A stretch of DNA of 64,000 nt from Amoebophrya sp. A120. Lineage: Eukaryota > Protista > Dinoflagellata. The DNA is taken from assembly GCA_905178155.1 (NCBI GenBank), contig CAJINV010000003.1:7546198-7610197 (forward strand), written 5' to 3'. Numbering within the stretch: position 1 is the stretch's first letter; the number at the start of each line of letters is the position of its first letter. Below the pieces are notes generated by a model, which was given only the letters and a program-made list of their open reading frames with translations, did no database searches and was not told where the DNA came from. Positions 7,878-43,500 of the stretch are shown here, in pieces. The position numbers and the translations under genes are program-made.

Positions 7878-9419
7878 TTACAGTAATTCAACCCTGTAGT
7901 CGAGCATTTCCCCTGCTCGAAAGGGAACTACGGCATGGTCCTTCCCTAGGATATCGTCGCCGAAAGTATCTGGGACGTAATTGATCTGCTTAAACAGCCG
8001 CATTTTTGGCCCTTCGTTTTTCGGGAAGCCGAAAAATTCAGCGCCGAAACGGCCGACAAAGTCCGGCAGCAGGTGAAGCCTCTGTGCCTGCGAAAAAATG
8101 TCCGCCAAGTATTGTATGACGAGCCCGCCAGTGAATACACCAGCAGCCGCTACCGCTGCCTCCTTTTTTGACCTCGGGTGCGGCGCACTGTCGCTGCCGA
8201 AGAAAAATTTCGGGTTGCCGCTAAAAACGACCTGCGATCATATTGCCATTGCGGTCAAGTATCAATCTTCACGTTCCATCGCGAAGGCACACGCTCATGT
8301 ACCTCCATGCGGTTCGGGCGGGTATCAATATTAAAGAGGAAGCAACGATTCTTTCATCAAGCTTAGCACAGTCACAATACCTCTCTGATTTTGTTTCGAT
8401 CGTGTGGTAGCTTCGGAATGGGCTTGCAGAACATGTGGCAGCAGCCAACCACTTGGTCGATGCAGATGTCGAGGTGGTGCGCCGTGACCGTGGCGGCCAC
8501 GTTATCCGGAGGAAAAACGTCCCCAACCCAGAGTCAAAATGATAGGGAATCGACTACACCAGCCTAGACGCTCACTCACTTTTTCGGAGTTGTGCATGAC
8601 AAGTTTCCATCCACAGTGTAGTGGTGGTTAGAAAATGAAGGCGCATGAGAGAGCCATATTCTCTTCCTGTTTACAGCATGTTACAAATCCCAAAACACTT
8701 TTGGAAATGCCTCTCATGGAGACGAGATGCACATTACAAATGTTCCAGCTCCTGTCATTCTTGTACATTTGCCTCAACACAACTCTGGGGTGGGGACGTT
8801 TCTCCACACGATACACGTTGGCTGGTAGGCTAAGCACGGTTTCCACTGCATCGCGGGTCGAAACATGCTCCAGCACGATTTTCAGGCGGGGAAACTCCTT
8901 GGCGAGGATCTGAAGCTCGCCTAAAAACATGGCTTCCGCCAGCATGACGCACTCGTTGGGCACTTCCCCGTGCAGGTGCAGCACCATCCCCAGCTCCTCC
9001 ATCTTCCGGAACACCGGGTAATACTGTTCGTAACTTTCCACGCCCGCATCGCTATTGGTCGTCACCCCGCGGGGGTAGCTCTTCACACCGGTGACGATCT
9101 TCTTCGCTTCGCCGGTGGTCGAGCACGTCACGACGCAATTAAAGGCCTTTTCGATTTCCTCGGGCGTGAGTTCGGGGCTGAGGTACAGCAAAATTTTATA
9201 ATCGATAGAGGGATCGATTTTGCTCAGTTCGTCGTAGTAGTCTAACGCCTTGGCCGTGTTGCTCACCGGCGGGATGGTATTTGGCATTACGATAACGCGC
9301 TGCACGCCGCTTTGTCGCAACAAGGGCACCACAACCCGACTCATGTCTCCCTGTCGCAAATGCACGTGCCAGTCATCCGCAAGCGGTAGCACTAAATCCT
9401 CCGTCGGTGCTGCGGCCAT
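7878..9419 (-). CDS. pyrC: Dihydroorotase (homodimeric PyrC/URA4 type), 3 exons
   Basis: Motifs DWHVHLR, VMPN, K.YP.GVTTNS, HLHGE, LEHVST, then ATVTAHHL...FCKP and FFFGSDSAPH in downstream exons. Intron 1 is non-canonical (element 8503-8813); intron 2 (8232-8380) is GT-AG. Confidence 0.95.
8503..8813. mobile_element. Introner element, family A (311 bp), non-canonical intron in dihydroorotase
   Basis: TSD CACGT at 8498-8502 and 8814-8818, about 32-bp imperfect TIR starting TATC. Removal gives LPAN-VAATVTAHHL in frame. Confidence 0.9.
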
Positions 9420-11392
9420 CGCTCTTTTCTAGTATGAATGAAGATGATCAAGACCTCTTTTTGAAGTAAATCAAGAAGGAAGCGATACCCTTTTGCGCTA
9501 GCTACAGTCTCCTGCGTCTTCTGAGACTGGATCAGCCGAGACCAGCTGTTCGTCGAAATTCTACCGAAAAGAGTTTACACGACACCACAGTCGCACGACT
9601 CGGATCACGATTCATTTTTTGGGGACAGAACAAGCGTGCTGCCAAGAACTTCACTCAATTTCGATTTTTCTTGGCTCAGAACGCAGGTGTTAGGAGTCAG
9701 CCGATCTGTGAAAAACCAATTGCTGAAATTCAGCCTACTTATGTCGAGAGAAACACAAACAGTCACTCGAGGCTTGTCGCTTGATTAACTTGGTTTTTGT
9801 TATCATTTCCTAAAAGGCGACGAACAAAGAAACAACAGGAGGAGGTAGGAGAGGTTCTTGACGTAGTAGTATTTATTCTATCGCGCGTTTAGCACTCAAA
9901 AGCGCTCGCCCACGTTTGGTTGGATCAAACCGAATCTGATAAGTGCGGAGCCACGCCACCCTCGCAGTACGCCCTCAGACGGAGTAAAACACGTCCCTAC
10001 CTGCAGCGTGGCTGAAACACTACATGTCCTTACGACATATCACCTCCGTTTGTCAAAGAAGTCAAGCCTTGGCCGTGAAGCAAAAGCCGACGATCCGGGG
10101 CGCCCAAACTCCCTCGTCGTCATCTTCGTGCTCAATGAAGGATCGACAACTTCAGGCTTTCAACAGCGCTCCCCAGGCTTGTTGAAGGCCGCGGGGGCAG
10201 CCTTTTCCAATTGCCGGGACGTTTTCCTTCGGGGGGGGTGCGGCTCGTTTACGCCGGGGGATATCCACGGACCCGCGTGCGTTCTTCGATTCAGCTGTAC
10301 GAGTCCGCGCGCGAATTCAGCCGCGCGCTGCTCCGGCCGCGGCCCCCCCCCGGGGCCGTGGACTGCACCCCAGTGCGGTAAACCTGGCCGCCCGGCTGTA
10401 CGCCGAACCAGCCGTCAATCTGGTCTCCCACAGGCCCCTCGCGCGGAAAGTTTGGAAAGTCAGCCCCCGCCTCTTGAAGTGGCAGGGTTCGCGTTGCCAT
10501 GGGGCACGATGGGCTCGCCGTCCTCCCGCTGCTCCGAGTGCCCCAGGTACCCCATGTGCAGGGCCGCTATGGCTTGCGCGTTCTCCGCGGACGCGTCCTT
10601 GTCCGCCGTGATGTCGCACACGGTTCATCAGCTGTACGAGTCCACCGAAGAGACTATTTTATTTCTTCCAAAACGAACTATATATTATAAGCAACTGTTG
10701 TAAGTACACGTTTCAGATGAGGAGCATTTTTTTTTCTCATTGTCACCGCAGAAGGACAAGCCCCCTGTAAGTAGAGTATCAATCTAATCTTAATCTTATA
10801 GCAAATTGAAAATGCCCCCGTCCGCCGTCGGGATTGGTTCATTTCTAGTGATCGCCATATTTCTTGTGTTTGATTCAACGGCATGAACCTTGGAGAGGAG
10901 ACGTGTTGCATCAGGGAATTTTTAGTGCGATAGAATTGATCTTCCCGACACAAAAGAAACCCAACCTCAGCTCATACCTACAACATAGTGCAAAACGCCC
11001 AGCGGGCTGTAACAAGGCTAGCACTAGTGTTTACTCTCTCGTAAGTTCAAAAATATTCAGGCACTCCCAGCACGGAGTGGAAACACGACTACAGTGTTCC
11101 TGTCGTTAGTTCTGATCTTATAGTCACAGTGAAGATCTTTAGGTGTGGTCGCGCCGTTCTGTGTTACTGCGTATTCGTATATGAAAAGCTGATTGGTTTC
11201 TGTTTCTGAAATTTCTGAAGTGTCAAATTGTTAGGCCTTTTGCAAATAGTACATCTCGTCTTTGTGCGATTGCGATTCTCATATCGTCCACATTACTTTT
11301 TGTAGCGTAATGCTGAGTTGTATATTTAATTCACAGCGAAGTTATAATACCTTTCAGCACATCAAAGTGCCGCGGCAAAGCATGCCGCTGCT

Positions 11393-13587
11393 TCACTTCT
11401 TTTCGCTCTGCAACTGGATACCGGCACTCCGCGCGTAATCGCGGTTGTAGGTGGTCATCGACGCCACTTGCCGGGAGCCCTTGTCATTAATGGAGGAAAG
11501 CGGCAGGTGGCCAGTGTAGCCGGGGATATTCAGATGGTACTGTTCAGCGAGGTTGTACCATTTTTCGCGCTCGTTGATTCCGCACTCGATCTTCGCGCAG
11601 TGCGAATTGGCCGTGTTCATCGGAAGGTAACCTGTTGGTTGTTCACTTGCTTTTTTATCATGCAGTTGCATTTCTAATCAATGCAAGATCCCGATCAATG
11701 ACGTATGCTTCGTCGGTTCGGTGTCCTTGATGCAGATCCAAAATCAAAATGCAAAGCAACCGTGAAAACCTGAATATGCATGGTACCTTGGTAACCCGGA
11801 ATGTGGAATGTTCCTCGCGTTGTGCCGCGCGTCAACTCAGTCTTCAGGGTCACAAACTTGTTGATCGACTCCTTCGGAAGATCTGTGAAAAATTCATTGC
11901 ATCCACTTGGGATTTTTCAGATACTGGTGCAAAACAATGGAAACGAGAAGAACGACGCAAATCTTATTCTTACTTACTAAAAAAATACAAGAAATGCCAG
12001 CTTCTCCGCACCGTGATCAATGTCCGACAAAAATATCCGGTTACCTGGCTCGTCTCCCACACGGCCTTCTTTTGCTACGTCTCCGACTTTTGCCATGAGT
12101 GTCTTCTCCAACACGGCGCGCTCGTCTATTACTCGAGTGTGGCCATCTTCCTTCGGTGCGATTCGGCCATCGTAGTTGTAGGACGGAATTACAAGCTTCT
12201 CCGTTGGGATACTTCCTGCCGCACTGTTTTCGTTTTGTCATTGTCGACCTTGGCGCCTTTTTTTCTAGTTCTGAAACGCAATTTGCTCTTGCTGAAATAA
12301 CCAGAGAAAACCAATCACGAGATGAATAATACAAGAATATTGAGTACCCATAATCTGCGGCATAGGAACTGGTGTAGGGCTCTTCGGCGAGGCACGTTGG
12401 TGGGTGCGCTACTTGAAATTTTGGTCCTCGGAGGCGCACGTAATTCTTGCACTCTGCCGGGCACTGTTTTCGTTATCGTTTGAAATTGAATACATCATTT
12501 CAGTTTCTCATGCGCTTGTCCAGTAATCTATCTGTAAGCGCTAGCACTCAAAAACAGCACGTAATGCACACAGCCGACATTCAGGAAAAGTGATACCGCA
12601 TAGCCGTCCTTGTTGGTTGTCTCCCTGTAAGTCGACGACCATATTGCAGCTCCTGTTCGTGATGGACCACTCGCTCCCCCTGACAGTCCTGCCGTTGCTT
12701 CTGTTGGCGCCTGGAGGTGGAGTGTGTGTCCCGTCGAAAAGCGACATCATTCATCGATTTTATTTTGGAGATATATTTGATGACAGCACACGACATGAGG
12801 GCCGCAGTGGAGTGCGCTTTTCCAATAGCATCAAAGTTGAGCGTCCCAAGGAGAAGGACAGGACGTGAAATAAAGAGAAAACGGTGATCGCTTTTGACCT
12901 AGCTCGTTAAAACCACAAGAAAATTCGTACCTTGCTCAGCGTAGAGCTGAGTTTCTGTTCCCAGTTTGCTTCGAAGGTCGGACCTTTTGGCTTCTCCTCC
13001 TCCTCTCCGGGTTTCTTTTGGTGCACCTGCAGGGTAAATAAGAACATACTTACGAGGTGGAAGACAAAATAAAAGCAGCTGCCAACATAAAGATACAATT
13101 CCGCTTGCGCTTCTCGAGGCGAGCGATAAAATTGTAAAAGTTAAAGTAAGTAAGTACTAGCAAAGCTGCTGGAATAAGCGGCTTCTGTGGGTTGGTGTAG
13201 TCCTTTGACTTGACGGTCTTGTTATACTGGATGTCATACTCATTCCCGTCCTTTAGTTGGTGCTGGATGAAGTTCTTCCTGCATGTGATTTGTTTCAAGT
13301 ATTTTCCTGGCCACATGGACATGAACTATGCCATCACGGAAAGCATTTTCAAGCATTGCGAAGTGAACAAGTTAAAAGCGCTTGATTGATGCATCCGTGA
13401 AAGACGAGAAATACTCTGAGAGCTTGACTTCTGTCGTGTAAAAGCCATCCCTGTCGTAGAGACCTTGCCCGGGTTTTGCGGCGATAACAGGCGCATCTTT
13501 CGTTGAAAGGAATATCCCGTGCTGTGTTACAACCTTCGGGATGTGACTTATGTGGTCCTTCAACTTGATTTGAGCCTCGGTCGCCAT
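11393..13587 (-). CDS. Multi-exon protein with PGY(Q/T)G repeats, FAM166/DUF2475-like ciliary microtubule inner protein
   Basis: Exons join in frame through GT-AG introns (one probably GC-AG). The C-terminus contains HIPGYQGYLP and NIPGYTGHLP motifs. Confidence 0.6.
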
Positions 13588-14355
13588 TCTTGCTGAAACG
13601 TTTCGGCGCGGACGTGCCGCTCGGAGCCTTGTCCCTTATTCAAAAAACGCGCTGCTTTGATGCCGCAGAATAACTATAGCAGCGCTCGCAGCATGATGAT
13701 AACTCTAAATTTTGTTTTTCTGTCGCCATGAACAGTTTTGATTTTCATTTTCGCGAAGATAGTGCCGGGGAAAGCAGGCGGACGCCCACTACTGCTACGG
13801 TAGCAATCCCGATTGACGAGAAATCGAGCGAACGACGACAACAACAAACTCCGCCTCTCAAAATAAGCTCCACCATCCGAATAAGTAACTCTCCTCCTCT
13901 CTCACGACGTGGTGTCGCCAGTGCCGACACGCTATCGACTGCAACCAAACATCAAAACGATTGGGCAGAAGGTGGAGGATCGCGAAAAATCTATAAAGTA
14001 CAAGTTGCACCGGCGTGATAGATCGATGCTTCGTGGGAACAACCAACAGGGCGCCGTACGAGGCAAAACTGCCAAGAAATTGAGGCAATCTTTAGAAGAA
14101 GTGCCACGATTCATACAATGTACCATCACGATCGGCGCGACATGGCCAGCACATGCCAAGGATTGCTGAAGCTGATCTCCGTCGTAAACCAAATGTCTGG
14201 AGCACAGCGAGACAGAATGGAGGACGAGCCAGCTGTGGAGTCTTTTTGTCTTTATTTACGCACGACCCTGTTCGTCCGGTTCTGCCGTTCTGCATCGATT
14301 CCTCTCGACCAGTACGCAGGCGTACGACCACCCCAGTGATGAACCTAGAGATCAT

Positions 14356-15380
14356 TTACGCAGGCGCGGCTAGCTTTGCGCAGAGGCGATCGACCTTGGT
14401 CTGCACACTGAAGTCCAGGACGGATTCGCCCATCTTCACGACGATTCCACCGAGAATGCTGCTGTTCGTCGTGTACGAAACTATAAGCTCGCGTCCACTC
14501 TCCCGCTTGCGCAACATCGCTTCGACCTGAGTGGAAAAAGGTTTCTGGGGCGTCACCAAAGCACTGGGCGGGCAACATGTTTTTACAACATGATGTTGTC
14601 CAGCACGCAACAAGAACACGGAAGCTACTGTTCGACAACTGCAAACATACATATCTGTACGCGTTCTCTGTCTTTGGGTTGCAGGTCTTTCACCGTGGTG
14701 ACTTGGCACAAAAGCTGGTTTTTCTCCGCTCGGTAAAACACCTCATAATTGTCGATCATCCGCTTGAGGTCCGCGAGCCGGCGGTTTTCCAGAAGCGTTT
14801 TCAGGTAGTTCATGGTTATTGCATCGTAGCCGTATTTCTCGCTCATGGCCTGAAACACCTCCTGCTTCTTTGCGGGCTGGATGGCGGGACTCTCTACGAA
14901 GAGCGCAAAGTCCTTGCTCTCCTCGTAGCACGATCGGACGTGAGAAAGATCCGTGAACACCTGGGATGTGATTTATTTCCTGCCTCAGGGTTGTAGCGAA
15001 GTGATAGATAGGCTCAGGCTGTTCCTTGTCGTTGTCAACACCTGCACGACTAGTACCGAAACAAAACTGGTGCAGTTTCACGAGACAGAGCAACCTTTGA
15101 TGCAACATATGGAAATCCAAAGAATTTGCTTGAATCAGAAGGACGAGTCGCAGAAGGCGCAACTACAACGGTGCTGTGCGATGGATACCTTGTCTAAGAC
15201 ATTCTTCTTCTTCGAGGCGTCCAGTAGCGCGCCGGAATACCTTCCCGCCAACGACAAGTCCTCATGCTTCCGAGCTTCAGAAGCGAAACAGCGCCTTGCA
15301 GTGGCGGCCGCAGAAGAATGGGAAGCTCTGTTTTGCGTAGCTAGCTGACCGCCCGCACGACAAACAAGACGCCCAAACAT
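14356..15380 (-). CDS. ATP5PO: Mitochondrial ATP synthase OSCP (delta) subunit, 3 exons
   Basis: Presequence-like start, LAGRYSGALL, LLENRRL, SILGGIVVKMGESVLDFSV. Canonical introns at 14961-15188 and 14527-14660. Confidence 0.93.
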
Positions 15381-16194
15381 TGTAGAAGATGTCAACGGCT
15401 GCGAAGAGCCGAGCTGACCTGCTCTTTCAATCGCCGCTTTTCTTGAGTACCACGACCCTCAGGGAATCTGAATCTGTTGCATCACCAAGAGCGGAAAAAA
15501 AAACACAAACATATATTTCGTGCTGGCAAACGGGAAAGTAAGTACTTCTAGCCGACGCGGAGCCCTTTTACGTCTCATCTTTTCATCCGAAAAAAGGAAG
15601 AGCGATACAGGGCGGAGCTTCGAACGTGCGGACAGGCATGTCACACGCAGCGAACAACAGGCACACGCAGGCCCCTACGCTGTGAGAATAGAAACATATC
15701 ATGTTGGTCCAGCATGTTGTGTTCATCTTTATTTCATTTGACATTTGTTCTATACCTCACGAGAGATGAGTGAATGTCTGTGTAATAAATCTGATGAACG
15801 TCCTCGCTGGATGGTACTGCAGGAGAGCCCAAAGGCAAAACATTGCAGTCGCACTCCCGGTCCACCACTTGCGGCCGGGCTTTCGAGAAACAGACGCCAG
15901 ACCATTTCCACGCATCGTCGAGACAGTCGCCACAGACAGCAGCTGAACGCATTCACTGCCAGTATCCACCTCGCTCGCCGTTTCTAGAGACGCGAAAGGC
16001 TCCAATGGCTTCACCAACCGTGCAGCACCTGCTCCCGGTCTGCACAGCGAAGAACCAGATCCTCGTTTCTGTAGCGCCGGATGTTGAACTCAAGCTTCTA
16101 GAACAAGAACAACAAAAAAATCTTCACCAGATATCACCTCGCAGCGGCAGCGGTCGCGGCACGACTATAACAGAGAAGGCCGCCCCGTCTCTGG

Positions 16195-19100
16195 TCAAGT
16201 ATTCCCCGATTCCCGCCGGGTCTGGTACCTCTGGAAGGCGGCCATGACGTACTGGAGCTGCATAACCCGCCGAACCTGGGTTGCGATGTGAATGTACTGA
16301 ATCATGTCGCGAAGGTTATACCCTCCGATCGCTTTCACACGGTCGTAGTCCTCCCTCGTCAACGCCTCGGGAAAACAGCAAAGCTTCTTCAGAAACACCT
16401 TGTGCATCAGCGTCAAGTAGAAGTTCAACCTGCAAGTAGAAAAAAATATAAAATGGTCCTTTAACTTTGCACAAAAATAGACACCATCAGAACCGCCCGG
16501 AATTGCCAATTCCTAGAAGCACCTATTGCTATTCTTCCACCTCTTACAACTCCGTTGATTGCTTAGTATAGCAGTGGACGACCATGAACAAACAGTAAGC
16601 TAGCATAGAAGCGAAGGTAGATAGAACCCAACTCAAAAGAAAAACCTTGTGTAGTTAAAGTCGTCAACTTCTAGGCCGTAGACGCGAAAAACGTAGGCGA
16701 ACAGCGCTCGTCGAATCGGGAGCGTGGAACTGACCTTGATACCGCCGACGGAGGAGTCGGTGTAGCTCTGTACGTACTCGTACTCTTCGTGAATTGCGTC
16801 AGCGATCTCGGGACAGTACTGCCCTAGCAACGGGTACGCGTGATCAGCCCAGCTGTACTGTGACGCCGCAGACGCGGCACCGGCCCCATAGTCTACGTAC
16901 TTCAGCTTGAATGTTTCTGCGCCTTTTGTACCGACATCACTTGCGTCCTCAAGGCCCGTAAGCTCCACCCCACTCGCGCGCGCGAGCAGAAAATCGCATA
17001 GCGGCGCGCGAACGATCGGTCGCGCAGCCATCACTTCCTGCAGGGAATGCCGCTCCTCCTGAGTCAGCGCGTTGTCTGTCAGTCGCCCGAGCTCGCGCCA
17101 GTCCTTCTCGCTTTTTATGGGGTTCAGCAACTCTTGCTCCTCCTGCTTGGAGATGAAGTAGTACCTGTAATTTAATGATCACCAAGCAGAGAAGGGGAAT
17201 CGAAAGTTCATATGGAAATCAGTCCGACTCGTACGGAGCCGCCTCATAACACAGCCTTTGCAGCCAGTGCGTTGGTGGCAAGAATATCGGAGATGACCAC
17301 ACCTGACGCCACGCTTGGACGTCCAGAAAGCACCGAGAACACTGTGTGCTCGTCAAAGAACATCCAGCAAGCATGATAGTGATACTACCAGTTCGCGGAC
17401 TCGGAGAGATTTTTGCGGAAGCAGCAGGGCAGGTGGGCGAGCACCTGAGCTCGTTTGGGGTCCTCCAAAACGACGAGCCGGTGCTTTTCTTTGTCCCCGC
17501 CGCTGCTCGTGCTCTGGCGTTCGAGCGAGGTGAGGTCCTCTTCCTCCGACCGCGCCGTGGCAAAGCTCGCCGTTCGGTAGCTCTCTTTGTTGCTGGCGAC
17601 CATCACGGTTTTATTCTTACTCGTGTTGTTTTCATCCTCCTCTGCGACACCCGTGTCATCCGGCGGCTCCGGCTGCGCTTGCGGCGCGGGAGCTATGAGC
17701 GATACAGACTCGGGGGATATTTTTCCATCGGTGCTTCCGTCGGTAAGGATCCACTTTTCGTCCCCCGGTGCCAACGGGTCTTCGAGCTCTAGGCCGAGCG
17801 CGAACACAAACGCCGACATGGAATGGTAGGTACTCAGGATCGCCAGCGCCGACAGCAGCTCCGTGCTCGACCACCGGCAGGCTGAATCATCCGGGTCGAG
17901 CAGCTCGGCGAAACTCACGACCGCGGTGCCCCGGCTCCTGTCGTGTTTTTCGGGACTGTTTCCGTGAGACGGAGAGGTCGTAGTGCCCTCCCCGGTTTGC
18001 TCCAGCAGCAGCCAGGGCTGGTGGCACATCACTTCGTTGAACTTCGCGATCGCGAGTAATTTTTTCGGAATTACGTCGGCACGCCCCGCGAGCCAGGTGC
18101 GGTCACCTCCAGTAAAAATGAAGCTTCGCCTTGTAGTGGACATCACGACACATAACAAAAACACAGGATCGAATTCGTCGAACGAGTTCTTGGACAATGA
18201 CCAGCTACAGCTTTTTTTACGACGAGGCCAATCATAATCGTCTTAAATTGGCCTCAAAACGACGGCCTAAAAATTGCTGCTGAGTAGAAGGAGTAAACAA
18301 ACAACTACCTCCCACTAACAGGAACATTTCCGCCGCGTGCCGCGCAAGATACTCGCAGCGCAGTTGCGTGGCCCCCAGCAGCGCGAGGTAGTGCCGCCAC
18401 GGTTTCGGCAAAGGACCCTCGTCAAACAGGAGCGCGCGCTTCGAGGAGAAAAACCGGTCGAGGAAGCCGTCGTGGGCTGCAAGGGCCCAGTGCAGCGTCG
18501 TCAGGTTTCCATTCTTCTGCTGAAACAGGTCTTGCCAACTCGGGCTCCCGAAATCCACGGGAGGTTTCTCTGCCTCCCCTGACTGGTCAAAGGAAGAGCC
18601 GCTGTGTATCAAAAGGAAAAATCCCCCCACCCCATATCGAAATGGAAATCTGTGATGCGGGATTTGTGTACACAAATCGGCTTTGTATTGCAGGAATGCA
18701 TCGCGGCCACATCCCCAGGCTATGTAGGGGCGTATCGGTCTAGTTGTTCAGCACGGCAAACGGCTCCCCTTTAGGCCCAACAGCGTGACAAATCGCCTCC
18801 ATAATGGGGGCGAAGCTTTTGCCCTTGTCTTCTTGCAAGACAGATGCGATTTGTGACCTCAAATCAGCAAAGCAAATTTTCGGAAACATGCCTTTTCGAT
18901 ATGGGGAGGGGGGATTTTTCCTCACAATACTGTGCGAGCTCGCAGTTGGCGGATGCAGGAGCGCACTATCAAATGTAAAAATGTCTGGGTCTGAAAGAAT
19001 GCAAGATTTGTGATGCAGTTTTTCCATCATCATCATCATGTAGTGGACACCCTCTCCCAGCGCCACAGGTCAAGGATCCCCTCCCCGGGGGGTGGGCGAG

Positions 19101-19954
19101 GGAGCGCTTTCGGCAACCTCATCATACAAAAGCCGAGCGCTACCACGGCAAGTCGCCCCAAGAAAAGTGCCAACCAGTCGGGAGCTACCCACCACACCTG
19201 ATCAGTACAGCCCGGCCAGCTAGCCGAGCGCGACAGCCCAACATACAGAACGATCCAGGACCCGACCCATTTTACGCAATACGTTTTTGTTCTCACGGAA
19301 GAGACGACGTACCCCTTTGGGTTAAGGCGCGAGACTTTTCCATGACCCATGAGGCCTGGAATGCAGCATCTAGCATGACAAACGCTGTGACGTGTCTATC
19401 ATGCATATCCTGCATGAGAAACTCCCTGTCAAACTGATGAAAAGTGCACAGCTTTTGGTAATCATGCAACACAAATTTTTGCATGCTTCAGATTCAGCAT
19501 GACAAGTGGCATCCTTCCAGACCCAGACATTTTTGCATTTGATACGCACACCACTGGGAACACTTTTCCCGGACCTCAAGTTGGGGACTAAATTGCGCAA
19601 GCCGTCGCAGCCTGAAGAAAGAGTCACGACAGAAAATGGACTGCATATTGTGACGTCGTTTCCGCATATTTATAAGTAACTTGAACCTACGTAGAGCATG
19701 GAGTTCTTGACGACCCGAATAAGGGAACGTGAAACTACTTGGATGCTCTCGTCCCTCTCCGTTGCTAAAGACAAAAAACACCTGTTCCACAGACGAAACG
19801 CTTTTTCCCTTTCTTGTGGCTCAGTGGCGTGACTACTCTGAGCGAGGTGCTCGATCTCCTGGCCGAGGTTCTCGAAGCCTGCCGGCGTCTGGGAAGCGAG
19901 CAGAAACCCGACGTGCTCCACGGCGCAATCCAACAGTTTGTCGATGCCCTCCAT
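16195..19954 (-). CDS. SESN: Sestrin (PA26 family), multi-exon, with two introner introns
   Basis: GPLPKPWRHYLALLGA..C.YL, GGD.TWL.G, HQPWLL, WSSTELLSALAILSTYHS, YSWADHAYPLL, IRRALFAYV.RVYGLEVDD and C-terminal QLQYVMAAFQRY all match the sestrin consensus. Confidence 0.88.
18607..18929. mobile_element. Introner element, family B (323 bp), in sestrin
   Basis: TSD CTGTG (18602-18606, 18930-18934), about 36-bp TIR (tatcaaaaggaaaaatccccccaccccatatcgaaa). Homologous along its length to 62735-63055. Removal gives TASSHS-GSSFD in frame. Confidence 0.92.
18967..19544. mobile_element. Introner element, family C (578 bp), in sestrin
   Basis: TSD CGCAC (18962-18966, 19545-19549), about 50-bp TIR (tatcaaatgtaaaaatgtctgggtctg...). 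Same TIRs as 57374-57635. Removal gives CSQWCA-LLHPP in frame. Confidence 0.92.
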
Positions 19955-20696: not shown

Positions 20697-23600
20697 TTAG
20701 GCAGCCATATTCCACGTTTTGTCGTCGTAGATTGCCTTTAGCAACTCGTCCGTGCGCTTCGCAATATTCACCGGCTCGATAGCCAGGATTCGCGTCGCAG
20801 ATCGTGTATCGCCCTCGTAGGTTTCTTTGTATGACCGCAAGCGGAGCTTGTACAGCGAGGCTACCTGCCAGCTCTTGAACCATTCGTCCACTGTGATCTG
20901 CATTTCTGAGGCATCCTGAGCTGTCTTCCCAGCTGTTGTGACAAATTTCTTCAAGTACCATAGCAGTGGTCAGTCTGCCAGTGTCGATTGTCGAAGAAGT
21001 GCCTGCATCACAACTTTGTCCTTCACTTGACCACGAAAGGTGACTGCCAACAGGTCGGCGATACGTTGCTGCACTTTGCACATCAACAAACTACGCAACA
21101 TTATCAATATAAATCAGAAGAACGTACTGAGCTTCTTCATATCGTCGTCAAACAGGTTCAGAATGCTGTCGCCGAATCCGTCCTGAAATACTGCGCGGAC
21201 AAGCCATCGCTTGACGGGCGTGACGAGGCCGTGGGTGGGGCATACGCCGTCACGAACTTTCTTGTTGCAAGTGGCCGGAGGTGCGTTGGCAGGCGCATTG
21301 GCGCGGACGACCTTTTCTGGGCACGCTTCATACCATTGCGGAACTTCCTCGTCCTTGCGTTGCGTCAGGACGCGCATCATTCGCGCGTAGGCTTCGGTGA
21401 TGATAAACTGCTCTTTATTTTCCCCAGACGCAGGCTCGATCTCGTCGACCAACTCACCCAAGTTTACCTGTAATTTCAACGTGGGACTTTTCTCTGATCA
21501 GACTCTCACCTAGACCTATCTGTGGTACTGCTCACGCCTTGGCGCTGAAAGTTCGACCAAGCTAGCAATGGGCGTCACTTACCGTCGTTGCAGAAACGCC
21601 GCCACAGGCAAGAAGCAGTATAAAACTCCCACTGGCTGGTTCGTCTAGGTGGTGCAGTTGCAAATATCTAACTCAGGGGAGAGTGACCACGTGCATACCT
21701 GTCGCACTTGATTTCCACCTATTTGTCCCGCACCTGCTTCGCGCATAGACACAAATGCCTTCGATGAGCCCCCGCTTTTCCACCACTTTTCTATCTCTTT
21801 GCTGCGGTCCTGTTGTGAAAGATTTTTTTTGTGCAGTTGTGAAAGGGTGAAGTTGTTGCAACTGTATTTTCGGAATTATATAAGTGCACGAAGATGGTGG
21901 ATTGCCATTACATAAAAATCCATTCCCCTTCCAAGGATTGAACATCCCAAAGAAAAAAGCCGACAGGTCAGAAAAAAAATAATTAAATAATAATTGTTAT
22001 TGTCAACAATAAAAGCAAAACAAAACAACAAAAAAAATTGCCGCCATACCATGCGGATTAGCTTCAGGACAGATCAGCAATCCGCGCGAATCACGGTGGG
22101 ACTTTTTTTATTGTCAACAATAAAAGCAAAACAAAACAACAGGAAGAAAGTGCCGCCATACCATGCGGATTAGCTTCCGGGCAGATCAGCAATCCGCGCG
22201 AATCAGGGCGGGACGGTGATCGCCCGCCTTTTTTATTTTTGTGGCGAATTTCTCTTATTCGCGCCATACCGTGCGGGCTGGGGTTCGTAAGGGGTTGCCG
22301 GCTTCGCCAATCCGCATGGCACGGCGCCCGCAGTCGGCTTCGCGACTTTTTGCAGATTTTTTATGTTCGCGCCTTAGCGTGCGGGCCGGCTTTCTGGCGA
22401 AGCTGCCGGCTTCGCGAATCCGCACGGCACGGCGGCCGCAATTAGTTTTGTGAATTTTGGCGAGTTTTTTTGTTTCGCGTCATACCGTGCGGGCGGGGCT
22501 TCGTAAGAGTTTGCCGGAGTCGCCAATCCGCATGGCACGGCGCGCGCAGGCGGTTTTGCGACTTTTGGCGAATTTCCTATGTTCGCGCCATACCGTGCGC
22601 GCTGGCTTTCTGGCGACGCTGCCGGCTTCGCGAATCCGCACGCCACGGCGGCCGCAGTTATTTTTGTAAATTCTCGCGATTTTTTCCCTTTTGCGCTATA
22701 CCTTGCGGGCTGGGCTTCGTAGGAGGTTGCCGGCTTCGCCAATCCGCACGCTTGCCAGCTTTTCGACAATTCCCGAATATTCGGAATCGCCGGAATCAGA
22801 GGCGGCGAGACTTCAAATCCTTGCGAAGTTTTTCAACGCTTGGGAATGCCAAAAATGCGACCCCCGCCTCTATCTGCGGAAACTGACACACTTAAAGTAA
22901 CTTCATCCCCCTTCTGGAACTTTTTGCCGTCCGAGTTCGTCCGCGGATACTTTCGAATATTCGGAATCGCTTCAAAATAGGCAGGCAGGAGTTTGGAAAT
23001 TGTCGAAGGTTTTGCCAGCTTTTCGAATATTCCCGAATATTCGGAATCGCCGGAATCAGAGGCGGCGACCGAGGCTTCAAATCCTTGCCAAGTTTTTCAA
23101 CACTTGGGAACGCCAAAAGTGCGATCCCCGCCTCTATCTGCGGAAACTGACATACTCAAAATAAGTTGCTTCCTCTGCTGGGAATTTTTGCCGAGTTCGT
23201 CCGCGGATACTTTCGAATATTCGGAATCGCTTCAAAATAGGCAGGCAGGAGTTTGGTAACCGTCGAAAATGTTCCCGAATATTCGGAATCGCCGGAATCA
23301 GAGGCGGCGAGACTTCAAATCCTTGCCAAGTTTTTCAACACTTGGGAATGCCAAAAATGCGACCCCCGCCTCTATCTGCGGAAACTGACACACTCAAAAT
23401 AAATTACTTCCTCGGCTGGGAATTTTTGCCGAGTTCGTCCGCGGATACTTTCGAATATTCGGAATCGCTTCAAAATAGGCAGGCAGGAGTTTGGAAACTG
23501 TCGAAGGTTTTGCCAGCTTTTCGAATATTCCCGAATATTCGGAATCGCCGGAATCAGAGGCGGCGAGACTTCAAATCCTTGCCAAGTTTTTCAACAATTG

Positions 23601-26600
23601 GGAATGCCAAAAATGCGACCCCCGCCTCTATCTGCGGAAACTGACATACTCAAAATAAATTACTTCCTCTTCTGGAAATTTTTGCCGAGTTCGTCCGCGG
23701 ATACTTTCGAATATTCGGAATCGCTTCAAAATAGGCAGGCAGGAGTTTGGAAACTGTCGAAGGTTTTGCCAGCTTTTCGAATATTCCCGAATATTCGGAA
23801 TCGCCGGAATCAGAGGCGGCGAGACTTCAAATCCTTGCCAAGTTTTTCAACAATTGGGAACGCCAAAAATGCGACCCCCGCCTCTATCTGCGGAAACTGA
23901 CATACTCAAAGTAAATTACTTCCTCTTCTGGAAATTTTTGCCGAGTTCGTCCGCGGATACTTTCGAATATTCGGAATCGCTTCAAAATAGGCAGGCAGGA
24001 GTTTGGAAACTGTCGAAGGTTTTGCCAGCTTTTCGAATATTCCCGAATATTCGGAATCGCCGGAATCAGAGGCGGCGAGACTTCAAATCCTTGCCAAGTT
24101 TTTCAACAATTGGGAACGCCAAAAATGCGACCCCCGCCTCTATCTGCGGAAACTGACATACTCAAAGTAAATTACTTCCTCTTCTGGAAATTTTTGCCGA
24201 GTTCGTCCGCGGATACTTTCGAATATTCGGAATCGCTTCAAAATAGGCAGGCAGGAGTTTGGAAACTGTCGAAGGTTTTGCCAGCTTTTCGAATATTCCC
24301 GAATATTCGGAATCGCCGGAATCAGAGGCGGCGAGACTTCAAATCCTTGCCAAGTTTTTCAACAATTGGGAACGCCAAAAATGCGACCCCCGCCTCTATC
24401 TGCGGAAACTGACATACTCAAAGTAAATTACTTCCTCTTCTGGAAATTTTTGCCGAGTTCGTCCGCGGATACTTTCGAATATTCGGAATCGCTTCAAAAT
24501 AGGCAGGCAGGAGTTTGGAAACTGTCGAAGGTTTTGCCAGCTTTTCGAATATTCCCGAATATTCGGAATCGCCGGAATCAGAGGCGGCGAGACTTCAAAT
24601 CCTTGCCAAGTTTTTCAACAATTGGGAACGCCAAAAATGCGACCCCCGCCTCTATCTGCGGAAACTGACATACTCAAAGTAAATTACTTCCTCTTCTGGA
24701 AATTTTTGCCGAGTTCGTCCGCGGATACTTTCGAATATTCGGAATCGCTTCAAAATAGGCAGGCAGGAGTTTGGAAACTGTCGAAGGTTTTGCCAGCTTT
24801 TCGAATATTCCCGAATATTCGGAATCGCCGGAATCAGAGGCGGCGAGACTTCAAATCCTTGCCAAGTTTTTCAACAATTGGGAACGCCAAAAATGCGACC
24901 CCCGCCTCTATCTGCGGAAACTGACATACTCAAAGTAAATTACTTCCTCTTCTGGAAATTTTTGCCGAGTTCGTCCGCGGATACTTTCGAATATTCGGAA
25001 TCGCTTCAAAATAGGCAGGCAGGAGTTTGGAAACTGTCGAAGGTTTTGCCAGCTTTTCGAATATTCCCGAATATTCGGAATCGCCGGAATCAGAGGCGGC
25101 GAGACTTCAAATCCTTGCCAAGTTTTTCAACAATTGGGAACGCCAAAAATGCGACCCCCGCCTCTATCTGCGGAAACTGACATACTCAAAGTAAATTACT
25201 TCCTCTTCTGGAAATTTTTGCCGAGTTCGTCCGCGGATACTTTCGAATATTCGGAATCGCTTCAAAATAGGCAGGCAGGAGTTTGGAAACTGTCGAAGGT
25301 TTTGCCAGCTTTTCGAATATTCCCGAATATTCGGAATCGCCGGAATCAGAGGCGGCGAGACTTCAAATCCTTGCCAAGTTTTTCAACAATTGGGAACGCC
25401 AAAAATGCGACCCCCGCCTCTATCTGCGGAAACTGACATACTCAAAGTAAATTACTTCCTCTTCTGGAAATTTTTGCCGAGTTCGTCCGCGGATACTTTC
25501 GAATATTCGGAATCGCTTCAAAATAGGCAGGCAGGAGTTTGGAAACTGTCGAAGGTTTTGCCAGCTTTTCGAATATTCCCGAATATTCGGAATCGCCGGA
25601 ATCAGAGGCGGCGAGACTTCAAATCCTTGCCAAGTTTTTCAACAATTGGGAACGCCAAAAATGCGACCCCCGCCTCTATCTGCGGAAACTGACATACTCA
25701 AAGTAAATTACTTCCTCTTCTGGAAATTTTTGCCGAGTTCGTCCGCGGATACTTTCGAATATTCGGAATCGCTTCAAAATAGGCAGGCAGGAGTTTGGAA
25801 ACTGTCGAAGGTTTTGCCAGCTTTTCGAATATTCCCGAATATTCGGAATCGCCGGAATCAGAGGCGGCGAGACTTCAAATCCTTGCCAAGTTTTTCAACA
25901 ATTGGGAACGCCAAAAATGCGACCCCCGCCTCTATCTGCGGAAACTGACATACTCAAAGTAAATTACTTCCTCTTCTGGAAATTTTTGCCGAGTTCGTCC
26001 GCGGATACTTTCGAATATTCGGAATCGCTTCAAAATAGGCAGGCAGGAGTTTGGAAACTGTCGAAGGTTTTGCCAGCTTTTCGAATATTCCCGAATATTC
26101 GGAATCGCCGGAATCAGAGGCGGCGAGACTTCAAATCCTTGCCAAGTTTTTCAACAATTGGGAACGCCAAAAATGCGACCCCCGCCTCTATCTGCGGAAA
26201 CTGACATACTCAAAGTAAATTACTTCCTCTTCTGGAAATTTTTGCCGAGTTCGTCCGCGGATACTTTCGAATATTCGGAATCGCTTCAAAATAGGCAGGC
26301 AGGAGTTTGGAAACTGTCGAAGGTTTTGCCAGCTTTTCGAATATTCCCGAATATTCGGAATCGCCGGAATCAGAGGCGGCGAGCCTTCAAATCCTTGCCA
26401 AGTTTTTCAACGCTCGGGAATGCCAAAAATGCGACCCCCGCCTCTATCTGCGGAAGCTGACATACTCAAAATAAATTACTTCCCCTTCTGGAAATTTTTG
26501 CCGAGTTCGTCCGCGGATGCTTTCGAATATTCGGAATCGCTTCAAAATAGGCGGGGGTCGCATTTTTGGCATTCCCAAGCGTTGAAAAAGTTGGCGAGGG

Positions 26601-30490: not shown

Positions 30491-30642
30491 CAGACTGTCG
30501 CCACCGTGCAGACGCGATGTGGTACCTAGGGATATGAAGATGATCAAGTAGTGTTTATGGGGCGTCTTTGCCGCGTATGCGTGGTAAATGCGACCAGCGT
30601 AATAAGTAAATTCATATACCAAATATAGCCGCCGGGGCGGGG

Positions 30643-31314
30643 GTAGTGAGGTCGTGGGCGTTTTTTTTTCCGACCGCCGCCATGGCCGCGGCTTTGCTTT
30701 TTCTGGGCTCGCCATACCGCCGTGAGTAACGTTATGCCGCACGGTATGGCGGTCACTTGAGAAACATCACAAATTTTGGCACATTTCCAAAATTCCTTTC
30801 CGAAAGCGAGCCTTTATGCTATGGGGCCGATCCGGGCGCCACGGGGGGCGCCCAAAAAGCGAAGAAAAATCGGGCCCGTAGCATGCGGGTTGGCTTTGCG
30901 CGTCTGGCGCGCTTTTTCTCTTTTGCGTTTTTATTTTTCACGCCGGCGCTTTTTGCAAAGCTCCCCAGGCTCTGAAGCCGGCGAAAAGGCGGCCGCTTTC
31001 GCGGCCGCCCAAAATGCTTCGAAATCGCGGCCGTGCCATGCTGTTTCGCTGTTCTGATTTTGGGCGCGTTTTTTGCGCGCCTCTTTTTGGGCGCCCCAAA
31101 TCGCCAGAAACTAAGGCGGTGGGCTCCGCAGAAGGGCGCCCCTTTTGCCGGCTCCCCTGCGTCGTTTTATCAAGTGCGAATCGATAGTTTTCGCTTGATA
31201 ATTGAAATTTTTTTATGTCAAAAAACGCTTTCGGCCGCTTGAAAACTGCCGGTCGTTTTGCTGGCTGGGTGTCAAAAAAACTCCCCGGTTAGAGCCGTTC
31301 GGTGACCTCACTAC
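30643..31314. mobile_element. Possible degenerate TIR element related in texture to the foldback arms
   Basis: 11-bp IR gtagtgaggtc/gacctcactac; internal cgccataccg/cggtatggcg motifs shared with the foldback subrepeats; no TSD found. Confidence 0.35.
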
Positions 31315-31546
31315 ATATTATCGTTTACGGGCACGCACCAGCGTCCTATACCTATTCATACATAAGAGTAAAGATAGTGCCTCGCTCTCGCTCATCAATT
31401 TGTTCTGCATTTCGGGTACAGCTATACTTCCGCATCGGCACATAAGTAAGCCCATAACGAGTCCAATCGTCCAACTGTCACATCATAACCATAAGTACAC
31501 TCACAGCAGAGCATAAACATCCTGATCCTCGCGGCTCGAATCACAT

Positions 31547-37500: not shown

Positions 37501-40500
37501 TTGCTGCCGGCACTGACTGCTTTCGCGTGACAGGCTTCCCAGTTTTCGGGTCAGCCGTATCCCATAGGAAAAAGGTAGCACCCCAGCATATCGATTTGCG
37601 ATGCAAAAGTACGTATCCAAAAAATCTTTCTTGCGAGGCCTTCTCGCCCGTGCGTGTGTCACATGAATGTTGATACAGTTACAGGTACAACTTCGCTTTG
37701 CATTACCTCCTGCTCTCCAAATATGCTATTTGGCCGCTAGCTGTTTTATTTGTGATAGACCGCCGGTTTTCCAGTTTTCGGATCCATGACGGGCACCTCA
37801 ACTTCCACCACACCCCCTGCGGCCGCCCCGGCGGCGCCCCCTCGGCTTCCCGCCCCGCCTGAGACGGACCCGCGCGCGCCCGCCGGGCCGCCTCCACCAG
37901 AAGCTCCGCCGCCTCCACCTGCTCCGAAGCCCGATACAGAACCGCGCCCCCCGCTTGCGGCCGCCTGCTGAACCGCCTCCGCCGGATCCACCTGCTGCGT
38001 CATCATCTTCGGCTTTCCCGTGACGGGATCCACTACCGGCTGGCCCGTGGCGGGATCGATTACCGGCACTTCCATAGTGACAACCTGCTTCTTTTCCGTG
38101 AGGGGTTTGCCATCGGCCCCCACCATTGGCTTTCCGGTCTTTGGATCCAGTATCGGAACCTCGACGGTCTCCATTTTCCCCCCAAGTTCGGCGGCCGCCT
38201 GCTTCGCGGCCTGGGCCGCCTGCTCCGACGGCGGGGCCTGCAGCTGAGTCTTCGGTTTCCCCGTCTTCGGATCAATCACAGGTTTGCCCGTGACCGGGTC
38301 CACCACGGGCACTTCCACCTGCACCACGGGCAGGCCATCCTCGCCCACCAACGGCTTGCCGTCGGCACCTAAAACTGGTGTGGTCTTCTTCGTCTCCATT
38401 ACGGGGTTCCCGTTCTCGTCCAGGACCGGATTACCGTTCTCGTCCACCATCGGCATACTGACAACCATTACCTGTGGGACAGTAGCGAAAGCAAAGCATT
38501 TTTGTGCTAAGAAGTTTTTAGTACGACACTCTACTCTATGATGTTACTTCGGGCAGTTCAGACAAATCGTTCGAATAAAAAATACGTGCGGGAGCACCAG
38601 GCCGGGCAGACTCGTGGCGCTGCAACTTTTTGGGTTCACAAAGACCGCACGCAGTGCGGAAAGAGGCTGTGCCTGGGTTTGCCATCTACTCGAACTTGGG
38701 AAAAACGCGAATACCCGCCTGCCTCAGAGCCGCAAAAAGTAGCTCATGATCAAGTGTACTTCTAGTAGTTTGTTCCTTATGTACTTACTTACTATACCGG
38801 GTTTCCGTTTTCGTCGACGACAGGGTTTCCGTTCTCGTCGAGCATGGGCGCGGGTGGCTTGGATGCTGCTTCGGCTTTTGCAGCCTCCAGCTTCTGGCGT
38901 GCTTCTTCCTCTTCGACACGTTTCTGCTCCGCCACGCCGGCTTCGTAAAACTGCTTCAGGCGGCAGATGGGGTTGAGAACGTCGTCCAGGGTAAAGCTGG
39001 CAGCCACGAACTCGTCGGTCCACTCTCCCGTACCGTACTGGTTGCTACCCCGCAAGCGGCCCGTGATACGGAGCGGCATCTCCCGTAGCTCGCGACTGGG
39101 CGCGAAGGCCTGCAAAGCCCCGGTCTCCCAGGCTTTCTCAATCACAGACTCGAGGGATATCGTGGAGGACACGCGCCCTGGCGCGCTCGGACTCTCGTAC
39201 ACTTCCAGGTTGAAGACCTGTGCGTCCAAAAGGATCTTGTGCTCTTCCATCGCGAGGGGCAGCAAACTTTCCTCATCACTCGCGTCGGGCACGGTGGGGA
39301 AGGCCTCGGTTTCCCGCGCGTCAAAACTAAAACTCTCTCTTGCAGAGACGCCATCCTCGAACGTCACTTCTGCCATGTTGTGTTCACCCTCGACTATCGG
39401 GTCGGGTGCTTCGGTGGCCGGTGCGGCTGCTTCTTCGTCTGCGGCAGGTGGGGCCGGCGGGGGCTCCTCCACCGCCGCGGCTTCTGCTTTTATTTCCTCG
39501 GCGGGCGCGGCTGCTTCTCCTGCCGCTGCGGCACCACCGCCTGCTGCCTCAGCCTCGGCAGCTGCCGCACGTTCTGCCGCGGCCTTTTCCGCTTTCTCTT
39601 CCTCGGCCTTTCTTCGCGCCTCTTCCTCGGCCAGCCGCCGCTCCTCGGCAAGTTTTCGTTCCTCTGCAAGGATGCGCTGCCGCTCCTCCTCCGCCAGGCG
39701 GCGCTCTTCGGCCTCCTCCGGCGACATCAGGCGCGCTACCGTTTTCTGTGCGGCCTTGCTCAGTGCGGATGGTTCCTTGCCCGTGGCTTCCACGCACAAG
39801 CTGAGCTCAATGTCGTAGCATGAGGACCGCGTCTGGCCTCCCCAGTCGGTGACTACAGGAAAATCTACTGCCAGATCCGCTCGACCCAGACGGGGAACGG
39901 AAAAGCCCGCCTGAAACTTGTCGATAGCCCACCGCACTTCTGGAACACTACTGCTGTACGGACACTTCACCGGCACCGCGGGCACGCTAAACGGACTTCG
40001 CCCGGCCTAGTTTTGTTTCGTGCATTCTTGTTATTTTAGAAGTTCTAGCTGTACTTGGAGCATTTTACAAGTGCATGGCTGTGCCAGTGCGCCGTTGTCG
40101 CAAAGGCAAAGGAGAGAAATCATACAGATACAGATGCACGTATGAACCAGTATTTTATACCTGATTGACAGCGGAGAAGCGCATGATGATGAATTTTTTC
40201 TTCATGTGAGGCGGCACTAGCCAAGCCTCTGGCACAGGGCGGATGATTGTTTCCACGTCTCCCGTGGAATTCAGCTTCCAGTGCACCTTCACGCTCCGCC
40301 ACCCTTTTTCCAGCTCGGATGCCTGCTTTTTTACATTCACGCTCAGCTGCCGCGATAAGCGGGCCTTCTCACCCATCAGACTGGTAAGCTCGGTCTTTCG
40401 CGAAATCACCTCCATGTCCTGCTTGGTTCCAACCAAGTACTCCGCAACATAATCGTAAATTGCGGCACGGTTTTCGTGTTCTGGCTTTTTGAAGCGGATC

Positions 40501-43500
40501 ACAGCCTCTTCTGCGGTACAACTCACGAACTCGGGCGCTCCGGGCTCTGAGGGGGCTAAGCACACCGGCGCCTAGTAGGATAATGGAAAACATGAGGATG
40601 AGCATCTTCTTGAAGATCTTCATCAAACTCGGTACGGACTAAAAACTACTTCTTTTTTGTCGTGCATACAACATCCAATTGTATCCGCCAGGTAGTAGTC
40701 CTATCGTGGTATATGTTCGGTGCATTTGATTTTGAATGCCTCGAACTCTGACCCGGAGAAAAAAACGCTTACCTGATACGAGACCGATTCCAGAGACTGA
40801 TTTCCGTCGATGATTTGGAACTTCGAGGTTGGTTCCTTTTCGCCGCCCTCCTCGCCCTCGTCAACATGGACACCGCCCGCGGCGATGGCGATTTTGTGGC
40901 GCGGCAGGACATTGAACTTGTACTTGACTCCCGGGTGGAGGTTGGCAATGTCGTACACGCAAACTTCCTCGTCGGCGCCCTTCACAGCGTTCCATCGCCG
41001 CCCCAGCGAGAACTTCTCCTTGGACAGCCGGGTCGACTCTTCCACGGTCTCCAGGTCCGGGGCAATATGGATGTGCCAGGATCGAAATCGACAAAGTCGA
41101 AAAATTTGTGATGCATAAAATGTAGGGCACAGAAGGCCTGTATTGGGGAGCAGGCAAATAAGGCCGATTGTAAGCCTGGTTAGGGGTATACAATGTGCTT
41201 TCAGAGTAGCATGACAGAAGCAGCGTTCTTTGCCCAAACAGCATGACAGACTGGATTCATTCGGGCGCTCCCGAAATTTGTCATGCGCCACTTGGAAACT
41301 GAGGCTCCAGCGGGTATCGATTTTATGCATTGCAAATTTTTCGATTTTGTCGATTTCGATCCTGACACTCCCATAGGCAACCTTGATCACGTACTCCACG
41401 ACCGGACCGAACATTTTCTGCTCCTCTTCGGATATTGGGGTCCAGGATATCCTGAGTAAAAACGTACCCACGCCAGAGTTGTCATGCAAATCTGCATGCT
41501 GAAAATGTTTCTCATGCGGAGCCCCATGAGAAGCATTTTCCAATCGTGTTTTGCAATCTGCCACGCTCCAATCAGCATGGTATGCTAGATCTGTGATGCT
41601 GCTGAGCTAGCTCAAACAGCACTACACTACGAATCCAAATTTGTCATGCAAAACAGCCAAAACTTGTGGACTTGTCTAGCCGATTCCCCAACTTGACTAT
41701 GGTGTGGGTACGTTTTTACTCAGGATACAGGAAAGGCTCAAATCGGTTGGCCGGATGGAAGACGCGATGGGACGGCCCGGCCGCGGCCCCGAGATGGCGA
41801 AGTTGACCGCGCCGCCGACTTGCTTACCGTAGATGCTCCCGTTCTGCGAGGCGAACAGCCGGAATTCGTACCGCTCGGTCGGGTCCGGCGGAAACGGGAC
41901 CTGTAGGGTGACAATCCCATTCAGCTGGCGGGGAAAATTGGGCAGGTGGACCTTGGTTTTTGACAACTCCCCGATGTTCTGCCCGCGCAACTGCCACCCG
42001 CCGCCCCCGGCCTGCGTCCACGTCACGCCTGCCACCACGACGGAAATAAAAGGCATTTTCTGCAAATCGCCAACGAGTTTTTTCGGAATGCGGTACGCTA
42101 TCGTGGCGGTCTCGCCGGGACTGAACGTCTGCTGGGACGTGCCTGCGTAATCAAGCAATACAACCCAATACAAAAATACAATACGTTAAATAGATTTTCG
42201 CAGAAAGCCTCCGCAAATTGTGGCTCACGGACAGGCCGCAAGCGATCCTTCATGAGGAGCAGAAACGTGAGATGAAGATGAAGTAGGTGAAGCTGAAGGT
42301 AATAAAACATGGAACAAAGAACATGAGCGCAGTTCATTGCTGCAGAACATCAACAGCAGTTGTACACAAAACGTCCGAGACGTGCGTGCCGATGGCTTGG
42401 GACAGGACGGAGGCAATGGTAACTTTCCCACCCTGCTGGTAAAGCTCGTCGTAGAGCGCAATGACCTCCTTCTTTCCCAACTTTGGCATACAGGGAATCT
42501 GGTTTTTCCGCTGCGACAGAAAGGACTTCTTGGCGAACCGCTCCTGAATCTCGGGGGAGAGATACACCCCAAAGAGGTCGGCGGCGAAGTCGGCTTTCAT
42601 GATGTGCGTGTTCGGGTCCAGACTGGTTTTCCCAAACACCTGCTGCATGGTCATCCCCGCCTCCGGGCGCGCGTTCCAGAGGCGAATCGCGAACTCCTCG
42701 AAGCCAAAGGCCATGCCGCTGTCGGTCATGCGTTCGCCGAACTCCTCGTAGCTCAGCGAGCGGTTGCCGTCCAGATCCATCATCTCGAAGAAGTTCAGGG
42801 CGTCCTGCCGGTTGAAATCCAACTTGCTGCCGAACTGCTCAAACAGCTCCCATTCCTCCACCTCCGCGTCCTCCCCACCTTTCTTTTTCGCCTGCATGTC
42901 CCGGAGAAAAAAGAAACATAGAAGAAGTGCCAAAACACATAAGTCGTACTCCGTCTTGCTCTTGCTTTTGCATAGTTATAGCCGCAGCAGCATGCTCGAT
43001 CCTCATCATACTTCTTGCAGTCATGCATGTCTATTTTTGCGCTTACGAAAAATCGGTGACGCCACGCTAGGTGTATTTTTCTCTGGGATCATACTGCATT
43101 CCGGCAAAGGCGTTCTTCCAGTTGCCGAACCGCACCAGCAGCCGGCGGCGAAAGTGCCCGATGTCGATGGACGGTGCCGCAGTGCTCATGGCGGTGAGGA
43201 AGGAATCGAAGGTAATGCCGTCCACTCCCTGTGGCAGAGGTTCCTGGTACATGCCGAAAGCTGCAATGTAGTCGTAGAAGCGCTTGGCCTCCGCCTCGAA
43301 CCGGCTGAGCAGCGCTTGGTCGAACACCAGCGAGTGGCCCCCCCCGGCGTTGCTGCGCTCGTATGCGCGCCTCTGGATGCGCACATACTCCTCGATCAGC
43401 TTCTCGCGGGGGATATACTCCACCACGGAGTTGCCGTGCCGCAGCTCGTCATGCATCTCGTCGAAGCTCTGCCGGAAGGAGTTGTAGTCCTGCAGCACCG

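Follow-up and report, generated by a model that had tools for sequence, protein, structure and literature searches.

The introner elements of Amoebophrya sp. A120, as set out in the text of Farhat et al. (2021; PMC7789003), have an inverted repeat that starts with TAT and continues with seven variable bases and an A-run, and they are bordered by direct repeats of 3–5 nt. They are without GT-AG ends, and a hairpin model was put forward for them in a genome for which the majority of introns lack GT-AG, U1 small nuclear RNA was not found, no transposase was reported, and the removal of such introns was left as an open question. In the supplement of Gozashti et al. (2025; PMC12130899), most of the A120 families among 22 of the 58 rows are classed as terminal inverted repeat (TIR) DNA elements with mainly non-canonical ends, and fam124 and fam214, which fall within these rows, are about 278 bp long with 30-bp TIRs. 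Introners that serve as introns in both orientations are described in the preprint of Roy et al. (bioRxiv 2020.10.14.339549) for Polarella glacialis, where they are TIR elements with a target duplication, and are cited there for Aureococcus. The nonconventional introns of Euglena (PMC12501133) also have paired ends and no GT-AG, an origin from MITEs (miniature inverted-repeat transposable elements) has been proposed for them, and pairing was found experimentally to be required. Here we analyze a 64,000-nt stretch of A120 DNA (contig CAJINV010000003.1, positions 7,546,198 to 7,610,197; hereafter the window), in which two introners, A and B, interrupt two genes transcribed from the minus strand and lie in opposite orientations.

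A and B are confirmed as opposite-orientation copies of one A120 introner family (Table 1). Both start with TATC, end with GATA and have 32-nt inverted arms, and the local alignment of A with the reverse complement of B spans both ends with a score of 80, whereas in the same orientation it is limited to the 32-nt terminal repeat and scores 39. With 20–40 nt cut off each end, the interior scores 50 in the opposite orientation and 19 in the same one, and a score of 50 was reached by 0 of 1000 shuffles (maximum 27–30), with 300 dinucleotide shuffles giving a maximum of 26. By blastn, A and the reverse complement of B are 66% identical over 219 columns (E 4e-10), and a global identity of 64.5% in this orientation makes them different subfamilies of one family. 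A preliminary description of the locus had matched the left end of A to the reverse complement of the right end of B and had put both hosts on the minus strand; the motifs that it quoted all lie where it placed them, the interior agrees with the proposed orientation, and the hosts are a dihydroorotase gene for A and the gene of a conserved uncharacterized protein, in frame -3, for B. Both elements are flanked by an exact 5-bp target-site duplication, and the removed segment is therefore the element plus one repeat (316 nt for A and 285 nt for B) and not the element alone. The published terminal pattern (TAT, seven variable nt, 3 or more A) is seen at either end of B but, in A, only on the left, the right end being decayed. 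The transcripts of A and B each fold into a long, strong terminal stem, though any TIR element would fold likewise; an Rfam search of the 64-kb window gave 0 matches.

The probable removal of A can be traced in the annotated protein and in an RNA-like contig. The best-hit annotated A120 protein (P0001) matches positions 9419–8814, 8497–8378 and 8228–7881 of the minus strand letter for letter, and it joins 8814 to 8497, leaving out 316 nt, which is A with one repeat and which yields a conserved dihydroorotase stretch present in homologues. A contig (X1/2, 1279 nt) of the RNA-like run X1 meets the genome exactly at 8814 and then continues for 544 further letters, with a depth per bin (52, 18.8, 68.5, 37.2) that follows the prediction for a spliced messenger RNA (mRNA; 51.9, 18.4, 68.5, 37.1). 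The contig edge and the depth together form strong but indirect evidence that A is absent from this run. Another contig (X8), from a run whose kind is not on record and which we read as genomic, covers 5500–18630 gap-free; the raw-read run X11 has 88 reads, nearly all of them partial repeat matches, and run X12 has 0 reads.

In the case of B, the conservation of the host protein suggests that the element is removed in the same manner. Of five removal lengths tried, 285 nt alone gives a gapless homologue alignment across the junction, scoring 334 with P0122 and 699 with P0125 as against 87–104 and 474–491 for the other lengths, and retention of B introduces a stop at its tenth codon. The homologues come from an HMMER search that gave 12, several of which match translated introner sequence; a search with one exon of the B host among proteins of 211–2000 amino acids gave no match, and the host protein has no match in Pfam. 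The B host gene also carries an introner of another family at 41066–41375, whose length with the 5-bp repeat is a multiple of three and which has no stop in the host frame; the homologues do not have this stretch, and gene callers could therefore retain 105 false residues. Introner sequence translated as predicted proteins or protein ends is present in protein databases (P0121, P0123 and P0132).

Table 1. Introners, their terminal parts and the exons of their host genes, in window coordinates.
Feature	Position	Strand	Remarks
Dihydroorotase exon 1	8814..9419	-	amino acids 1-202; exact match to P0001; RNA-like contig edge at 8814
Dihydroorotase exon 2	8381..8497	-	conventional GT-AG intron comes next
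Dihydroorotase exon 3	7878..8228	-	
Element A	8503..8813	.	311-nt TAT...ATA introner, MITE-like; transcribed as own reverse complement; fold z -4.5
A, left TIR	8503..8534	+	32 nt, 27/32 complementary
A, right TIR	8782..8813	-	
A, 5-bp duplication, copy 1	8498..8502	+	6-nt repeat if the element's end base is counted
A, 5-bp duplication, copy 2	8814..8818	+	
Element B	41448..41727	.	280 nt, same family as A, orientation opposite to A; fold z -7.4
B, left TIR	41448..41479	+	30/32 complementary
B, right TIR	41696..41727	-	
B, 5-bp duplication, copy 1	41443..41447	+	
B, 5-bp duplication, copy 2	41728..41732	+	
B host, upstream exon	41728..42152	-	conserved uncharacterized protein; 62% identity to P0125
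B host, short exon between B and 41066 element	41376..41442	-	
Introner of another family, B host gene	41066..41375	.	5-bp duplication; absent from homologues
B host, downstream exon	40701..41060	-	
Introner in sestrin (PA26) gene	18607..18929	.	same orientation as relative at 62735
Introner in sestrin gene	18967..19544	.	same orientation as relative at 57374
Introner	57374..57635	.	5-bp duplication
Introner	62735..63055	.	5-bp duplication; sole G[TCA]-AG register (GA-AG) among 7 clean elements

The orientation of the family relative to host transcription was tallied in one related assembly (JACKZZ01 contigs), where an end-pattern scan gave at least 129 loci; the counts for this and other families given here and below are among the matches listed. 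The 200 elements found reduce to 190 that are non-overlapping and unique and, after 7 same-site duplicates are dropped, to 183 distinct sites, so that at least 183 distinct TAT...ATA sites have exact 5-bp repeats and at least 84 of them belong to the A/B family, within which 0 of 2868 pairwise orientations are inconsistent. The host strand was called by a codon model. Tested leave-one-out on 186 chunks, it gave 21 calls at margin 10; retrained on the loci and applied to 63 window chunks, it gave 32 at margin 8, and in both trials every call was correct. Of the 84 sites, 42 were called, with 22 transcribed as B is and 20 as A is (p 0.88), and the retrained model called 50, with a split of 27:23; no orientation bias is detectable (95% confidence interval 0.36–0.68). 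Family copies that are 97% identical occur in opposite orientations, B is 95–96% identical to copies of either orientation, and six of seven other families are mixed (11:5, 7:4, 3:2, 4:2, 1:1 and 2:1), with one at 2:0. Pairs at the same locus, for which a strand call is not needed, are opposite in 7 of 15 cases. At one locus (L066), two A-like copies in opposite orientation (1501–1779 and 2132–2413) stand on either side of one 118-codon exon. The tally that the preliminary description had proposed is thus even, and interior and strand do not matter.

Removal of the element with its 5-bp repeat gives the best coding frame at 19/22 and 14/17 sites, and its retention breaks the frame at 22/22 and 17/17, or 39/39 in total, in a test that omitted 6 short-flank sites and was done before de-duplication. 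Pfam searches covered 87 of 97 proposed flanks, 10 of which scored above the curated cut-off, with Fes1 (L075) being doubtful. A cobW domain runs from 1–78 to 83–111 across one junction (L063) and a Glyco_transf_34 domain from 18–95 to 106–166 across another (L067), and Tfb2, SMC_N, ALAD, SpoU and UDPG dehydrogenase each provide an anchor on a single flank. The domains that continue across junctions independently support removal in both orientations.

A and B share with the published A120 introners their host (from the match to P0001), the TAT-type inverted repeat, the border repeat of 3–5 nt and non-canonical ends, and the family is likewise repeated, with at least 84 sites in the at least 129 loci of the related assembly. 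The text of Farhat et al. (PMC7789003) leaves the borders open, whereas here they are TAT...ATA with an exact 5-bp duplication, removed as the element plus 5 bp, and in annotation the borders are best set as the element plus one 5-bp repeat. Like the introners of Polarella and Aureococcus, the family is present both ways round (22:20, 27:23), but those introners recruit GT, GC or GA and AG ends, where the A/B family needs none at most sites, and the Roy preprint (bioRxiv 2020.10.14.339549) notes a bias toward one orientation, where the A/B family has none detectable. Euglena introns, as described in the published study (PMC12501133), need CDG at +4, CHG at a distance of 5–6 nt from the 3′ end, and exons that start with a purine, and their end sequence is unrelated to that of A and B; the word "orientation" is absent from the main text of that study. 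Either-orientation introners are already known, and the feature seen here is real and belongs to the published A120 system. The advance is modest, namely that introners which recruit no splice sites are divided evenly between the two orientations; this narrows the question of mechanism and renders it testable. An orientation tally was not found in the searched text of Farhat et al. (PMC7789003), where matches to "orientation" concern gene order, nor were orientation data for A120 introners found in 12 of the 14 files of Gozashti et al. (PMC12130899); more generally, an orientation analysis for Amoebophrya was not found in the literature searched, with figures, some supplements, Huff 2016 and the journal version of Roy et al. 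outside its scope. The 2025 filter of Gozashti et al. (PMC12130899) required 5′-to-5′ similarity, unlike our comparison of both orientations and unlike the method of Gozashti 2022, which, as described, permitted opposite-orientation matches, and family searches that demand such similarity will split or undercount families of this kind.

The anatomy of the A/B family, with TIRs, a duplication of constant length, no coding capacity and many copies, is that of a MITE or non-autonomous TIR DNA transposon, and the family likely spread as such, a class already published for A120 introners (PMC12130899, supplement file 8). The target bias is palindromic, with C2 at 70/183 and G4 at 75/183 sites as compared with 44 for G2 and 39 for C4. 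Inverted ends, the constant 5-bp duplication, this bias and the even split together fit a TIR DNA transposon and contradict reverse splicing, and the preference of the preliminary description for DNA transposition is borne out by the first three of these. Reverse splicing of excised intron RNA into transcripts would predict sense-only insertion with no duplication, and what is seen is 22:20, exact 5-bp duplications and the C2/G4 bias; the orientation tally refutes it, barring wrong strand calls at about half of the sites, nothing in its favour was seen, and we regard it as the least credible of the explanations considered.

Our preferred reading, to which we give a probability of about 60%, is that introners of the A/B family spread as DNA transposons and that each is removed along with one duplication by machinery which recognizes the paired ends but is blind to interior and strand. 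As the interior works both ways round, the signal should lie in the arms and the duplication, and the even split together with the near-identical copies leaves for it the duplication and some 32 bases at the ends. By pairing, the ends may form a stem in which the two duplications come to lie side by side; the position of the cut would be set by its distance from the stem base, and the machinery would cut the element and one duplication from the pre-mRNA while ignoring interior and strand. As the putative catalyst, the U1-less spliceosome described for A120 is favoured over a non-spliceosomal enzyme. It is possible, though we put it forward tentatively, that A120 has a second, spliceosome-independent excision system that recognizes only the terminal stem and takes out the element with one target duplication, in any orientation, target sequence or length; if so, any insertion would be erased from mRNA, which would explain the genome-wide invasion of exons.

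One important consideration is whether the stem or a linear motif guides removal, and we take the stem to be the probable guide. A modified spliceosome or a protein might instead read end motifs at fixed distances (on the 5′ side, a conserved G9 with an A-run; on the 3′ side, a U-run and perhaps a branch A), the hairpin then being a by-product of transposon anatomy. Indeed, the consensus end supplies a run of 5 U followed by AC, about 9–15 nt from the end, at the 3′ side of the transcript in both orientations, and because the inverted end is symmetric, a linear motif is also present both ways and orientation cannot separate hairpin from motif. The earlier claim of hairpin-dependent removal therefore stands for the irrelevance of interior and strand (22:20, 27:23), while dependence on the hairpin itself is not established. 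T10 is off consensus in 2/50 5′ ends and 9/50 3′ ends, which is in keeping with a linear signal, and in Euglena motif and pairing are both required (PMC12501133). Yet a guiding motif is rather unlikely in our judgement, given that the 3′ ends, with 81 differences as compared with 54 at the 5′ ends, are no better conserved (sign test 19:13, p 0.38), so that extra constraint on the 3′-side end was rejected, that the ends of the 41066 family differ in sequence and its removal with 5 bp still restores the host, and that G-U appositions exceed A-C ones on the sense strand by 54:26 over the first 20 stem positions (p 0.002). This excess, which is 40:23 when position 10 is left out and for which a sign test gives 36:17, is no more than a hint of selection for RNA pairing. 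A given end lies 5′ in one half of the copies and 3′ in the other, which makes the family a natural experiment for pairing versus motif.

Since either-orientation introners elsewhere use recruited splice sites (bioRxiv 2020.10.14.339549), orientation alone cannot exclude the spliceosome, and the elements might be ordinary spliceosomal introns for which the duplication provides GT, GC or GA and AG ends, the arrangement known from Polarella and Aureococcus. Five of seven window elements have a G ahead of the initial T, which makes a GT donor, and GT-AG is found at 8 vs 1 of 99 sites on the sense and antisense strands. The exact cut register slides within the duplication. At 88 of 99 sites no register allows G[TCA]-AG in the sense direction (possible at 11 sense and 4 antisense), from which it follows that the ends are not recruited as in Polarella. 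Neither A (7 registers) nor B (6) has an AG acceptor in any register fitting exact removal, and G at duplication position 5 of the sense strand, the candidate donor, has a frequency of 0.30 in 100 sites, not above the flanks. This shortage of usable end dinucleotides, which was absent from the preliminary description, points away from ordinary splicing, and with the 99-site end count that reading is already largely refuted and very improbable. Where direct repeats flank the base of a hairpin, reverse transcriptase may jump from one repeat to the other, a class of artefact that is provoked by this kind of anatomy. Both here and in Farhat 2021, all evidence from RNA was obtained through complementary DNA (cDNA), and the missing segments might be cDNA deletions and not splicing at all, with protein made through a different bypass, such as the ribosome hopping from one duplicated codon to its copy, such codons being present in any 5-nt duplication. 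However, the depth over A fits total loss with no retained form, and retention breaks the frame at 39/39 tested sites, conserved enzymes included, which leaves this explanation slightly less plausible still than ordinary splicing.

Several points weigh against removal by machinery that reads paired ends and ignores strand. Run X1 is only guessed to be RNA and bears on the junction of A indirectly, the evidence for B is at the protein level, and the tally comes from a single other assembly sampled through an exact end pattern. The frame test is partly circular, because the strand calls used sequences already without the element and its 5 bp. GT-AG is slightly commoner on the sense strand, as given above, and AG acceptors number 51 sense and 36 antisense of 99. 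Over 30 stem positions the G-U to A-C ratio is 65:47 (p 0.11), the excess cannot be told apart from a strand bias in mutation (Fisher p 0.63 and 0.20 for the TIR against the interior), and position 10 alone, at 14:3, equally fits a linear preference for a 5′-end T.

In the window, an exact 5-bp repeat flanks 11 TAT...ATA pairs, and 7 of these have arms paired at 13/20 or more, as compared with a mean of 0.06 at 12/20 or more in 100 resampled windows; the two further related pairs, 18607/62735 and 18967/57374, have the same orientation within each. A 6,023-bp element at 21943–27965 has the same type of ends (TATC right, CATC left), arms matching at 58/60 and an exact 5-bp duplication, holds 108-bp subrepeats and a 14 x 256-bp array, and sits in a gene similar to that of the replication protein A large subunit, probably within a conventional GT-AG intron. 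Decayed elements at 5727–5885, 7297–7404 and 37558–37757 have imperfect arms and duplications of 4/5, 4/5 and 3/5, and removal with 5 bp at 5727 and 37558 leaves a frame that is open and plausible; such elements could help to gauge the amount of stem required. The genes examined in the window (1–64000) are all on the minus strand and the plus-strand GC skew is negative in 31/32 bins, as expected from the co-oriented gene blocks of Amoebophrya. A highly covered transcript at 11629–13414 has seven conventional introns, several with A-rich 3′ ends and no pyrimidine tract. Finally, a non-coding repeat at 30616–31317 is 89% identical over 734 columns to a stretch of the related assembly (L080:1799–2531) and contains an internal 15-bp inverted repeat, and a GC-rich 19-bp tandem repeat at 63760–64000 runs off the end of the window.

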